Positions 3,921 through 56,982 of a DNA stretch of 64,000 bases are shown here, piece after piece. Position numbers and translations under genes: made by a program. Origin of the DNA: Eledone cirrhosa (taxonomy: Eukaryota); the NCBI GenBank assembly GCA_964016885.1, contig OZ024743.1:36146001-36210000 (forward strand). The letters run 5' to 3'. Below the pieces are notes generated by a model. The model ran no database searches. It had not been told where the DNA came from and saw only the letters and a list, made by a program, of their open reading frames with translations. Positions within the stretch are counted from its first letter, which is position 1; every line of letters begins with the position of its first letter.

Positions 3921-4640
3921 TTGTTATACTTGGGGAAGGTCATATTTGTGTAATATTGCCAGAATTAATAACAGAACACACTCACTGTTTGGTTGGTTTT
4001 CGCTTTTCGCTTCTGTGTCTTTTATATCGGTAATCTAATTTATTCGGTCCTCAATGTTGCTATTGACTGACCAACGGTCAAAAATAATACAGATACAATA
4101 TAGACACAAACACATATATAATTTATCAAAGTTCTTTCGTTGCACATCTGCAACATCGTCAGTGGTGCTATTGTTTCCTCCCGTTGCATTGTATTTTCTA
4201 CGCCATCTTTATTTAGTCTGTTTATATATTTATTTATTTGTTTATTTTATTTTGTCTTATTTACGCATGCGTATGCGTGTGTGTCTAGTGTTTTGTTTGA
4301 TGTGTGTCCGTGATTGGGTGACTGTGTATTGGTTAATGTATTCTATCTTTACTAGTTTGTGTTTATATGTGTTTGTTGTTATTGTGCTTGTGTATGTATT
4401 TATTTATTTATTTATCTATTTATTTATTTATACTTCTCTTAGGTCAGTGTTGTTTGTTTGGGTATTGTTGTTATTCCATTCATTCTTTCTGTTTAGCCTT
4501 GGCCTTCTAAGTTCTATTTCACTGGCCTCTCTGATTTGCATATCTGCTGCGTCATTTCTATGTTTAGATATTATTCTAATTTCTATGTTGTCTATGTTAC
4601 CGTCGTGTTGTTGTCAGGCATGTTCGTATAGTACTGTTAT
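3921..4640 (-). mobile_element. Degenerate Penelope-like element 3' end (GIY-YIG C-terminal fragment, hammerhead ribozyme, pLTR tail)
   Basis: Minus-strand translation of ~4637-4476 gives TVLYEHA*QQHDGNIDNIEIRIISKHRNDAADMQIREASEIELRRPRLNRKNEW. A hammerhead and a tail ending at (TA)n follow on the same strand. Confidence 0.75.
4125..4166 (-). ncRNA. Minimal type I hammerhead ribozyme motif
   Basis: ACCA CUGACGA U GUUGCA-GAUG-UGCAAC GAAA GAAC UU UGAU. Confidence 0.7.
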
Positions 4641-5079
4641 ATATATTAAACTTGAATTGAACATTTTTCCCAAACTGAAATGTATGAAATTTACTTTAGT
4701 TTACCAGTATTCGCTCACGGAAAGGCATCAACATCACCGCATCTCATTCTCCTATCTAATTTAAACCCTCAAACACTGGCAACTGAAAACATGGCTCGTT
4801 TCTGGCAATAACGTTTCTGAATTTTCTTATCCAGGTTCGTTAGAAATTGAATTTTACACCAGAATTCGTTGCAATGCAGGATTAATCTAGTAGTAAGTGT
4901 CGCATTTTGAAACTGTCTGCGCTTGCTTGATACTATGGTATTATACTGCCTGTAAATTTTGTATCACATTACAAAGAAGAAATGAAGACACTTTTATAAT
5001 AAATGTTACAGACCCCGCACTATCTTAATCCAGTACTGATCCGAAGATGATATTTTGTGAGTGAGAACCGCAAACTGTG

Positions 5080-5870
5080 ACAACCCTCAGTGGTAGAATC
5101 ATTTGAGTATCAGATAAAGTACATCAAACTATGTCAACCCTCAGTGGTAGAATCATTTGAGCATCAGATAAAGTACATCAAACTATGTCAACCCTCAGTG
5201 GTAGAATCATTTGAGCATCAGATAAAGTACATCAAACTATGTCAACCCTCGGTGGTAGAATCATTTCAGTATCAGATAAAGTACATCAAACTATGTCAAC
5301 CCTCAGTGGTAGAATCATTTGAGTATCAGATAAAGTACACCAAACTATGTCAACCCTCAGTGGCAGAATCATTTGAGCATCAGATAAAGTACATCAAACT
5401 ATGTCAACCCTCAGTGGTAGAATCATTTGAGCATCAGATAAAGTACATCAAACTATGTCAACCCTCGGTGGTAGAATCATTTGAGTATCAGATAAAGTAC
5501 ACCAAACTATGTCAACCCTCAGTGGTAGAATCATTTGAGCATCAGATAAAGTACATCAAACTATGTCAACCCTCAGTGGTAGAATCATTTGAGTATCAGA
5601 TAAAGTACATCAAACTATGTCAATCCTCAGTGGTAGAATCATTTGAGTATCAGATAAAGTACATCAAACTATGTCAACCCTCAGTGGTAGAATCATTTGA
5701 GTATCAGATAAAGTACATCAAACTATGTCAACCCTCAGTGGTAGAATCATTTTAGTATCAGATAAAGTACATCAAACTATGTCAACCCTCAGTGGTAGAA
5801 TCATTTGAGTGTCAGATAAAGTACATCAAACTATGTCAACCCTCAGTGGTAGAATCATTTGAATATCAGA
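5080..5870 (+). repeat. 54-bp minisatellite, ~14.5 copies
   Basis: Unit AACTATGTCAACCCTCAGTGGTAGAATCATTTGAGTATCAGATAAAGTACATCA. Confidence 0.95.
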
Positions 5871-6145
5871 CTTTGAGGTATTTAGTTGCGGTTCTTTACG
5901 TTCTGGTTTTAAATTCCGCCAGGGTCAACTTTGCTTTTTCATTCTTCCGTTGTTGGTAAAATAAAGGGACAGTGAAGTTAGGGATCAATTTTGCTCGAAA
6001 TTGCTGACCTTGTGCCTAAATCAGAAACCATTATTATTATCATTATTATTACTGTTGGCAGTATCAGTAGAGGGTTCTGACGCCATGCTTTGACGCATAG
6101 AGTTACGGCCCTTGCCATTCTGAGTTCAAATTATATAGTAATATA

Positions 6146-6333
6146 GGGCGGTGAATTGGCAGTATCGGTAGAGGGTCGGACGCCATGCTTTCCAGCATAG
6201 TTACATCCCTTTACGATCTGAGTTCAAATCCCGCCGAGTATGACTTTGCCTTTCATCCTTACGGGGTCGATAAAATAAAGTACCAGTAATATACTGGGTA
6301 ATTGCTGGCCTTGTGCCTAAAGTAGAAACAATT
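6146..6333 (+). mobile_element. tRNA-derived Meta/MESC-type SINE (partial or inverted copies cluster at 5850-6130 and 6400-6850)
   Basis: A box TGGCAGTATCGGT, B box GAGTTCAAATCC, central GCCTTTCATCCTTACGGGGTCGATAAAATAAAGTACC, tail GCTGGCCTTGTGCC..AGTAGAAACAATT. Confidence 0.85.
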
Positions 6334-7094
6334 ATTTCAAATAGAAACTGTCACAAAATCACCACAGCGTGCTGCATACAACATACGGCAATAATAATGA
6401 TTTCTACTACAGACACAAGGCCAGCAATTTGGGGGAAGGGGAAAGTCAATTAAACTGTTGCCAGTGCGTCACTGGTACTTTATTTTATCGACTCCGTTAG
6501 AATAAAAGGCAAAGCTAACCTCGGCAGGATTTGAACTCAGAACGTAAAGAACCGTAACTCTATGCCAAGAAGCAGGGAATCCGACGCTCTACAGATACTG
6601 CCAATCCCAATAATAATAATTGCTTCTACTTTTGGCACAAGGCCAGCAATTATCACAGTATATTACTGGTACTTTATTTTATCGACCCCGTAAGATGAAA
6701 GGCAAAGTTCTCCTCGGCGGGATTTGAACTCAGATAATAATAATAATAATAAATTGTTTCTACTTTTGGCACAAGGCCAGCAATTACCCAGTGTATTACT
6801 GGTACTTAATTTTATTGACCCCCGTAAGGATGAAAGGCAAAGTTAATCTCGAATTCGGTTGTAGTCCCTCTCAATATCCCTCCATTTTCACCGTTAGTCA
6901 CACCCGAAAGATGGCATTAAGGTCACAACATCCTGTTTTCTCAATTCTTTTCTCTACCTCCCACTTTCCTCTCACTGCTTTTTATTTCTCCCAATACACA
7001 AGCACACATACACTTGAATATACAGTTATACATGTATGTATATACATATTGTATGTATATACATATTGTATACATCAACATATCAGGATTCTTT

Positions 7095-55174: not shown

Positions 55175-56095
55175 CATGATGGCTGCCCCTTCGTTATCGA
55201 GTATGGCCATTGCACGATATACCATTATTAATAATTATCAATTAATTCTATCGTGCAATGCCTGTGCTTGAAGATATTTTTTTAAATGAGGAAAGACTGT
55301 GCACTGAGCCAATCCCACTCTCTGAGCGACAGTAGCTATAACCCGAAAAGAAGAAAATATCAACATCATCGGTAACTACTGAGCCGCAGGTTTTATATCG
55401 GAGTTATCCCAGTTTCCTGAGTTGCCTTCTCCTAGAAGAATGCCCTGACAAAGGCTACAGGTCCTTCATTCCCAGTGGTTTAACCGCGCGATCGGGTGTC
55501 CAGCCCGATTATTTCTATGTCCCCGCGCATGTACTTACACATGCACCCATGCATATACACATATACATATACATACATATGCACATGTGCATATACATAT
55601 TTACACACTTTTGTATGGCCGTTGACTCTTATGAGATCTTCCGCCCTTTACATACATACATACATACATACATACATACATACATACATGGTGGCTGCTA
55701 ACTCGTTTTCGAGTACGGCCACTACTTTATATCCATGTAGGAGAACCCCTACCGATGCGCTAAACAAGTGTGACTTTTTAGTCCAGCCAGCGACTTGAAA
55801 ACTCCGGTACAAACACTACACTTGTGACAATTATTGACACAGTGCTGGGCCCATGGTACCATGTGACGACAAGTGCAGAGAGATCTCCAGATATAAAGCA
55901 ATGCCTGTGCCGTGAAGCTTTTATAGTGAGTAAAGGCACTGCACAAAGCCAGTCCCACTCTCTTAACCAAGATGATATTTACCAAAAAGAAGAACAAGTC
56001 AACATCATTGGATACCATCAGAGTTGCAGGTGTTATATCAGAGTTTTCCTTCTCCTAGAATTCTGCCTTGACAAAGGCTAAGGGGTCATCTCTCC
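55175..56095 (-). mobile_element. Two copies of a short non-autonomous RTE-derived element ending in (TATG)n; relatives ~53425-53955 (-) and ~36183-36420 (+)
   Basis: RTE 5'-UTR-like CTAGGAGAAGGAAAACTCTGA joined to CSVCTGVFKSLAGLKSH (RTE C-terminal C2H2-like motif) and a short 3' UTR. Confidence 0.6.
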
Positions 56096-56402
56096 CAATA
56101 TATATATACATACATACATACATACATACATACATACATACATACACAACTCAAAACATCCACATCCACACATACAATAACATCCATACCTGCACACACA
56201 TGCATGCAGACATGCAGACATATCTACCTAGTTGATGATGAGTAAATTCCAATGAGAGAGTTTTGTGTCTATGTTAGAAACTGACTCTCTCTTTATTGGC
56301 AAAACTTTAAAACTTTGTGAAATTATATATATATATATATATATATATATATATATATATATATATATATATATATATATATATATATTACGAGCACATT
56401 AC

Positions 56403-56438
56403 GAGCTGAGGATCCGCTAAGGTGAAACAATTGTTCTC
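56403..56438 (+). ncRNA. Minimal hammerhead ribozyme
   Basis: GAG CUGAGGA UCC-GCUAA-GGU GAAA CAAUUG UU CUC; palindromic AACAAUUGUU. Confidence 0.8.
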
Positions 56439-56922
56439 AGTATGATGAACTAACTGTTGTGTAACCACTTCTACCTAACTCGTATATATATATACATACA
56501 TACATATACATATATATATATATATATATATATATATATATATACATATATAATATATATATATATATATATATATAAATATATATATATATATATATAT
56601 ATATATATATATATATATATATATATATATATATATATATATATATATATATATATGTGTGTGTGTATATATATATGTGTATATATATATATGTGTATAT
56701 ATATCAGATATGCATCCGTAAACAATAACTCTCTGCTCGAGTGGGCCATGAGACCCAAATTCTGATTTGAAAGACTTCGCCAGGTGGTGCTATTAAGTTA
56801 GACATGGTCTGGGCCAATACTGGCCGAAACCTATCAAAGTTATCAAAGTTATATATATAAATATATATATATATATAGTGACGAAACATAAGTCAATTGC
56901 ATGAACTCATAATCCTTTATTT

Positions 56923-56982
56923 ACTGCTATATATATATATTTCGATGATAGCCATTGAATGGCTATGACCTCATCAGGCAGT
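56923..56982 (-). ncRNA. Hammerhead ribozyme whose stem III is (UA)n
   Basis: ACUGC CUGAUGA GGUCAUAGCCA-UUCAA-UGGCUAUCAUC GAAA (UA)n GCAGU. Confidence 0.8.

Follow-up and report, generated by a model that had tools for sequence, protein, structure and literature searches.

The window analyzed here is a stretch of 64,000 nucleotides from Eledone cirrhosa (GenBank assembly GCA_964016885.1, contig OZ024743.1, positions 36,146,001–36,210,000 of the forward strand), and belongs to a 3.0-Gb assembly. It contains short elements, next to (TA)n runs, that carry type I hammerhead ribozyme motifs and that we group into families A to H. A sequence-only reading of the window had placed nine hammerheads in it, and inspection confirmed the core CUGANGA...GAAA...UH in order at 9/9 of these loci, exactly where they had been located. 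The hammerhead families are almost certainly the truncated 3′ ends, or pseudo-long terminal repeats (pseudo-LTRs), of autonomous Penelope-like elements of 3–4 kb, and not separate small families.

Self-comparison of the window identified several loci as head-to-head fold-backs between (TA)n runs. The young, Hydra-type family C is present as a fold-back with 99.7% identical arms (8469–8851), followed by an 85-nt tail (8852–8936), the element as a whole spanning 8469–8936. Each arm carries a hammerhead: one in the left arm (8513–8578, minus strand, loop III UAUAUA, predicted cut after 8521), absent from the sequence-only reading, and its inverted twin in the right arm (8742–8807, plus strand, predicted cut after 8799; cited as 8743). 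Family A, which is likely Hydra-type, was noted at several places. The fold-back at 17662–17827 (minus strand; self-comparison span 17662–17766) holds a hammerhead at 17680–17724 with a predicted cut after 17683 and a stem I truncated to 3 bp, where longer family A copies have 5–6 bp. A second fold-back (9196–9371; self-comparison span 9266–9369) has its junction inside the hammerhead core and the tail on the left arm, a single arm lies at 21033–21095 (minus strand, hammerhead 21049–21093), and a decayed fold-back at 46429–46577 includes the motif at 46506–46550 (plus strand). Family B (Neptune/Nematis-type) forms a fold-back at 32967–33293 that extends with its tail to 33338; its hammerhead at 33080–33118 (minus strand, loop III GUAC) is complete, and the inverted copy at 33152 (plus strand) misses most of stem I. 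The old family D, with copies 69–88% identical, lies at 52066–52290 (minus strand, hammerhead 52132–52201), and its family norm is a loop III CAAUUG and a GUC site. Short arms of two Hydra-type families are found at 56391–56483 (family E, plus strand, hammerhead 56403–56438, loop III CAAUUG) and 56878–57047 (family F, minus strand, hammerhead 56923–56982, loop III (UA)n). The 3′ end of a Neptune/Nematis-type element of family G occupies 3922–4636 (minus strand), with a hammerhead-like motif at 4125–4166 that has a weak stem I and a predicted cut after 4129. Two further short 3′ ends of family G (2273–2478 and 8978–9123) stop before the hammerhead.

The Hydra-type family H did not appear in the sequence-only reading because most of its copies hold only half of the hammerhead and its core reads UUGANAA, the compensatory U3-A8 form. 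Its fold-back at 33360–33559 has a tail on one arm and only the 3′ half of the hammerhead (3′ strand of stem II, GAAA, a 5-bp stem III, GUC and the 3′ strand of stem I). Other fold-backs of this family lie at 7584–7773, 17996–18185 and 51822–52000, a diverged copy at 24150–24292 (minus strand), and a very short fold-back, with both arms stopping downstream of the hammerhead, at 15902–15985; self-comparison located family H fold-backs at 7668, 17996, 33361 and 51941. Related observations were made at three more places in the window. At 36800–37000, a fold-back of another family in (TA)n holds a hammerhead-like motif, of which the 3′ half is present, and has a tail on one arm; a related junction occurs in the fetched stretch L217. 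At 24520–24580 (plus strand), a short end and then (TA)n come after GAAA, a GC-rich stem III and GUC, and the core upstream is absent; this is possibly another half hammerhead. Two small fold-backs of unassigned families lie at 14453–14505 and 14558–14647.

We searched the window with a strict type I descriptor, requiring stems I, II and III (or a palindromic loop III), and a relaxed version with a 2-bp stem II; the control was a set of 100 local dinucleotide shuffles in which microsatellites were kept in place. Six strict matches, and seven with the 2-bp stem II, were found, vs shuffle means of 0.02 and 0.09 (maximum 1, n = 100), which bears out the expected excess of motifs. The word CUGANGA alone was not enriched in the window (26 observed vs 20.7 in shuffles). 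The claim that all nine cited loci have a complete core plus closing stems held for six of them, at 8743, 17680, 21049, 33080, 56923 and, with the relaxed version only, 56403. The motifs at 4125, 46506 and 52132 failed the descriptor. The motif at 46506 is a decayed copy of family A; that at 52132, likewise counted as decayed, is altered in loop III and the cleavage base relative to its own family D, which passes the stem test in other copies; and that at 4125 has a stem I mismatch and a non-palindromic loop III, which is the family G norm and not decay.

Motifs were also clustered without demanding a stem III. The 1.97 Mb of fetched DNA, a sample enriched for the searched families, held 252 unique motifs, which yielded 56 clusters; 27 of these had multiple members, about 3 of which look like chance matches. 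In 12 of the 27 multi-member clusters loop III reads as an exact palindrome, vs 4.0 expected from letter permutation, and in several others it is palindromic around one central base. The palindromes differ from family to family. This agrees with the palindromic loops noted in the sequence-only reading, and the excess fits the dimer model in the accessible part of PMC4209133. The hammerheads would be expected to cleave weakly, mostly as dimers through the palindromic loop III or with the help of protein.

The U3-A8 change recurs in several families, and fixed-position samples held further U3-A8 families with a palindromic loop III (L230:3185, L230:7827 and L251:6896). Most family H copies hold only the 3′ half of the hammerhead, and the long copies carry a complete U3-A8 hammerhead; for one complete copy a monomeric three-way junction with a 5–6 bp stem III is predicted (z-score −0.2). 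Only 26 family H sites have a CUGANGA nearby, and these neighbors look like junction accidents. Given the complete hammerhead in the long copies, we reject a reading of family H as a trans-cleaved ‘substrate half’ that has no complete parent.

The motifs might also be conserved as protein-binding or packaging folds that rarely cleave in vivo. According to the available text on an Anolis element (PMC11167929), the hammerhead requires protein and can be dispensed with in vitro; catalytic mutants insert normally there, and the cut site is not the end of any read. In E. cirrhosa every insertion spans the cut site, and family G has spread with a weak stem I. On the other side, the 27 recurring families retain the catalytic core and UH site as well as the compensatory U3-A8 pair and the palindromic loop III, and we consider a predominantly non-cleaving role unlikely.

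Every family is dispersed through the genome. Exact matches, which tally arms and not insertions, amounted to 62,608 for the family H motif pattern, 46,382 for a C-like pattern common to several subfamilies, 7,789 for family B, 7,555 for a 22-mer of the 3′ end of family G, 5,919 for family E, 4,254 for the core pattern of family A and 3,640 for family F; all reversed-pattern controls gave 0. Family F was found by pattern search, and a DNA similarity search for it returned nothing. For family C, 35/47 listed matches were 100% identical over all 191 nt. To estimate density we used 35 stretches of 10 kb at round coordinates (350 kb), in which 31 C3-G8 motifs were present, vs a mean of 0.125 in 8 shuffles, and 4 U3-A8 motifs, vs a mean of 0.625. 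The C3-G8 motifs were divided between the four largest contigs (11 in 150 kb) and smaller contigs (20 in 200 kb). The genome-wide density is thus estimated at about 1 hammerhead per 11 kb, or about 2.6 × 10^5 motifs, with a fair range of 1.5–4 × 10^5 since matches are clumped and both arms are counted. The proposed density of more than one hammerhead per 10 kb is true in the window and roughly so genome-wide.

In the window, (TA)4 follows the cleavage site within 19–208 nt at all 11 motifs checked. Among the first 30 matches of each of seven family patterns (n = 210), (TA)4 was found within 140 nt downstream in 195/210 copies, compared with 15% of random positions within 130 nt, in line with the suggested (TA)n targeting. 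The distance to (TA)n shows two sharp peaks per family in 6/7 families and a single peak in family F: the 3′ ends meet (TA)n at either of two sites that are fixed within each family, and a tail of 40–85 nt may be present or absent; this tail is the leader of the next unit. In the stretches L002, L005, L262 and L287, elements of different families lie side by side in one (TA)n run, so that such runs act as shared landing sites.

The same 210 copies bear on the proposal, which the sequence-only reading had left open, that the short elements are non-autonomous retrozymes without long terminal repeats (LTRs), or units resembling short interspersed nuclear elements (SINEs), that copy themselves via small circular RNAs. 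Type I hammerheads, units of 100–400 nt and a very high copy number are what such elements would have, and a preprint, in its accessible part, derives animal retrozymes from pseudo-LTRs (bioRxiv 10.64898/2026.07.22.740005). Short tandem arrays are absent, however: a same-strand copy lies within 1 kb in only 5/210 cases and an inverted copy in 73/210, and no cited locus is among the 150 listed of 219 tandem rows. Junctions vary by copy, most family H copies are without the 5′ half of the ribozyme, and long copies enter open reading frames (ORFs). We regard the retrozyme proposal as improbable and largely refuted. Inverted repeats with TA flanks could also point to miniature inverted-repeat transposable elements (MITEs) of a TA-targeting DNA transposon, with the motifs incidental. 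Against this, the arms are asymmetric, with one tail, centers and junctions vary, single arms make up many of the copies, motif numbers exceed those in shuffles at least 100-fold, and the sequences continue into reverse transcriptase (RT) and GIY-YIG frames. With neither fixed terminal inverted repeats nor uniform length, and with these ORF continuations, the MITE interpretation is refuted and scarcely credible.

The coding sequences identify the parent elements. In a fetched stretch (L101), a 692-aa frame of family C with the motifs RWR, DKT and CxCX5C is flanked by two hammerheads on the same strand, which are separated by 3.9 kb; an inverted copy is located upstream. Hammerheads 3,118 nt apart enclose a 786-aa open frame in family H, whose ‘tail’ continues directly into the ORF. 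Both ORFs have the DKT motif and the CxCX5C linker and lack CCHH; the linker was also seen in families E and A. These are marks of the Hydra clade as defined in the accessible part of PMC8557442. Both ORFs carry RWR where the Hydra definition has RWK, and their units measure 3.9 and 3.1 kb vs less than 3 kb in that definition. Atlas look-alikes of the family H protein score 0.96–0.99, and some of their members carry HTH_animal, GIY-YIG or RVT_1. Fragments of a Hydra-type endonuclease lie upstream of family E (2 copies) and family F, and in one of 18 long copies shown of family A (L338); family D has only decayed fragments of this type, a weak tie to Hydra. Families B and G run into RT and a C-terminal endonuclease with a CX4CxxC linker and CCHH, which is Neptune/Nematis-type. 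The hammerhead lies in sense to the ORF, near the 3′ end of the element, and is repeated in both pseudo-LTRs. Membership of the Penelope-like elements, as previously proposed, is supported by linked ORFs, complete or fragmentary, and weakly so in family D. The description of the families as unrelated in sequence holds at the DNA level, and it is the ORFs that are related, with 43% identity between H and C.

Many short copies are head-to-head fold-backs in which the arms halt at a family-specific point. Family H fold-backs have the tail on exactly one arm in 28/30 pairs. In copies anchored on the tail end, 32/38 family H arms that reach −31 stop 31–50 nt upstream of the cut, 21/59 arms stop over the 100 nt preceding this 5′ stop zone, and 17/21 family A arms stop in their zone. 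A second sample consisted of consecutive pattern matches on one contig (C1). Here, of 52 family B arms, 16 end early, 24 end within a 17-nt zone, 0 in the next stretch and 12 read through, so that 24/36 of the arms reaching the zone stop there; its edge is one-sided and lies 44 nt upstream of the core. In family H, 45/62 arms end in the stop zone, with an anchor that hides shorter arms, and in family F 12/30 stop at two adjacent positions. The stops fall inside loop II in family H, at stem I in family A, and 44 nt and 72 nt upstream of the core in families B and F, respectively, each at a pyrimidine-A step resembling an initiator. Fold-back junctions differ between copies, so each fold-back was likely formed at insertion. 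In a first set of junctions, the extra G expected from a capped 5′ end accounted for 6/6 non-native bases in family E and 11/18 in family A. Two simpler descriptions were tried and rejected: a fixed 166-nt unit of family A was an artefact of picking the best query matches, unbiased copies having varied junctions, and a stop at a fixed distance from the 3′ junction holds for families H and A (50–70 nt) and fails for B (about 180 nt) and F.

We lean slightly toward the short copies being run-off complementary DNAs (cDNAs) that stop at the RNA's 5′ end. This view draws on the priming data of PMC11167929 combined with the promoter inside the pseudo-LTR described in PMC2377424, as far as these sources are accessible. 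In the Anolis element of the former, the protein nicks and extends both DNA strands and starts at two internal RNA sites bounding the tail, and product length follows the RNA's 5′ end, a shortened 5′ end giving shorter products. The same stops could instead arise when RT pauses, or the cDNA snaps back, where a long or circular RNA is locally structured. In favor of pausing are short palindromes (AGCU) at the family A and E stops, a small loop II hairpin in family H and the absence of the cap-G signal from the unbiased junction set. One family A copy (L299) folds back exactly through stem I, and junction palindromes are interpreted as self-priming in the available text of PMC3846280. The stops, however, come after the helices have been copied and not at their 3′ feet, their position relative to the hammerhead varies by family, the family B edge is one-sided and 44 nt upstream of the core, and one-arm tails (28/30) with two fixed 3′ sites fit two priming events. 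Pausing or snap-back is accordingly a credible competitor that we rate below run-off, at worse than even odds.

Taken together, we favor type I hammerheads lying in the pseudo-LTRs of (TA)n-inserting elements of Hydra and Neptune/Nematis type, with short copies as run-off products, and give this reading as a whole a probability of roughly 0.8. The GIY-YIG endonuclease would cut (TA)n, and each DNA strand would prime at one of two sites within the upstream pseudo-LTR of the transcript, just downstream of the hammerhead. Both cDNAs would run off the transcription start after 50–190 nt and then be joined head to head. For longer and tandem copies, a jump to the RNA's 3′ end or a longer or circular template would be required. 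Hammerhead cleavage would trim the 3′ end of the transcript, and most genomic copies would be inert remnants. More speculatively, replication might be LTR-like, with RT starting just behind the 5′ hammerhead and a strong-stop cDNA off the transcription start jumping to the RNA 3′ end via a repeat of 30–140 nt whose right edge is hammerhead-cut; this step is tentative and on balance doubtful. If it were true, the strand jump would regenerate the pseudo-LTR, for which the accessible text of PMC2377424 sees ‘no obvious mechanism’, failed jumps would have left about 10^5 ribozyme-bearing fold-backs, and these would record the promoter of each family to within a few bases.

Several results weigh against this reading or limit it. 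Pfam matched no family in the family C and H ORFs, and a PDB search with the H ORF gave no match. The ORF link comes from one copy for family A (L338) and from decayed fragments for family D; the clades are putative assignments by motif and not by tree, in which Neptune and Nematis are not told apart. Rfam returned 0 matches in the window at the gathering threshold, so the expected match to its hammerhead models was not obtained, and no hammerhead family was among the 150 listed of 497 Rfam E-value matches, a list taken up by miRNA models that respond to microsatellites. Most of the folding z-scores (−2.2 to +0.6) are weak, and 3/8 stretches (4125, 56403 and one of family A) are not hammerhead-folded at minimum energy. 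The family E stop is blurred, with 28/80 arms in the zone and 39 beyond; 14 arms are spread 13–33 nt further up. Family G has no clear stop among 12 arms. The initiator-like steps were chosen post hoc and are common in AT-rich DNA, TA microhomology could alone produce the family F peak, and the two arms of one fold-back are not independent counts. Finally, the extra junction G was not reproduced in the unbiased set (5/25).

The window contains other repeats. A long interspersed nuclear element (LINE) at 26193–31505 (plus strand), which we take to be Tx1/L1-like, has two long open frames and looks intact; the 404-aa frame matches a zinc knuckle weakly, and the 1,166-aa frame has AP endonuclease, RVT_1 and zf-RVT. 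A 180-aa frame at 16579–17121 (minus strand) without a Pfam match presumably resembles the restriction-like endonuclease of site-specific LINEs. An RT fragment (212–1222, plus strand; weak RVT_1, E 0.018) emerges from a long (TA)n array. An interspersed family of 190 nt, SINE-like by size, is found at 8201–8390, with copies at 6151, 16265, 32733, 41625, 49152, 53690 and 60096 (85–94% identity); no tRNA genes were called in the window. Minisatellites at 5071–5870, 10685–11557 and 19901–20110 have units of 54, 87 and 41 nt in 96–98% matching copies and no hammerhead match inside.

The pairing of hammerheads with Penelope-like elements is already known, and this core finding is not new. An octopus element with a hammerhead and a (TA)n target, Hydra-1_Obim, is listed in the supplement of PMC8557442, and 31 recently active Penelope-like families of Octopus vulgaris are described in PMC13282606, in the main text of which the word ‘hammerhead’ is absent. 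The ‘large, unannotated radiation’ of the sequence-only reading thus stands as to its many families and overstates their novelty. In the literature covered, mostly title-level listings with subscription papers outside coverage, we found no cephalopod-wide motif count or fixed 5′ stops; nor did we find in print a density of 1 per 11 kb, a U3-A8 family of 62,608 matches, or sharp 5′ stops (families B, H, A and F) with one-arm tails. The scale is considerable, with an estimated 2.6 × 10^5 intact motifs in at least 27 recurring families, and Rfam misses all of those in the window. The fold-backs could be mistaken for MITEs, SINEs or hairpin RNAs in annotation, and near-perfect inverted repeats in the tens of thousands would, if transcribed, give rise to much double-stranded RNA. 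Young, abundant families with sharp stops make the run-off and jump model of pseudo-LTR regeneration testable.

The comparisons that follow draw on the accessible parts of the sources. The closest known system is the Hydra clade (PMC8557442; Craig et al., 2021), which likewise has a C-terminal GIY-YIG domain, DKT, the CxCX5C linker, no CCHH, a hammerhead near the 3′ end, a (TA)n target, inverted 5′-truncated copies and a tail at one end. It differs in that PMC8557442 has one octopus family among ‘a small number’, whereas the Hydra-type families found here number at least six, each with exact matches in the thousands to tens of thousands, and have RWR instead of RWK, units of 3.1–3.9 kb instead of less than 3 kb and tails of 65–85 nt; the U3-A8 core is absent from its Hydra hammerhead table. 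Families B and G resemble the Neptune and Nematis elements of the same source in the CX2-5CxxC linker and CCHH of a C-terminal GIY-YIG domain and in a microsatellite target. The minimal hammerheads of Penelope-like elements (PMC4209133; Cervera and de la Pena, 2014) are also type I, with an extra base after A9, a palindromic loop III, and many families per genome that occur mostly solo or as opposite-strand pairs, and the U3-A8 variant was already reported there for Schistosoma. Family H differs from these in its 5-bp stem III and predicted monomeric three-way junction. Hammerhead counts in that work are 2,000–9,000 per genome (Xenopus 9,000), vs the estimated 2.6 × 10^5 here; other published counts are 4,000–9,000, up to 120,000 in the axolotl, whose genome is far larger, more than 6,000 in a coral, and about 5,000, and 235 Rfam hammerhead matches have been published for the giant squid. 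The density is the highest hammerhead load seen among the published figures compared.

Poseidon of Anolis (PMC11167929; Frangieh et al., 2024) shares two internal RT start sites that set the tail, an AT-rich target, extension of both strands and a hammerhead upstream of the start sites. Its start sites lie inside the ORF, whereas those of family H lie before it, and no description of fixed genomic 5′ stops or of one-arm coupling of the two start sites was found in its available text. Non-LTR retrozymes (PMC7229834; bioRxiv 10.64898/2026.07.22.740005) are likewise short animal repeats that bear type I hammerheads and are related to pseudo-LTRs, but they are head-to-tail arrays of 150–450 nt expressed as circles, whereas the present copies are solo or head-to-head remnants of coding elements.

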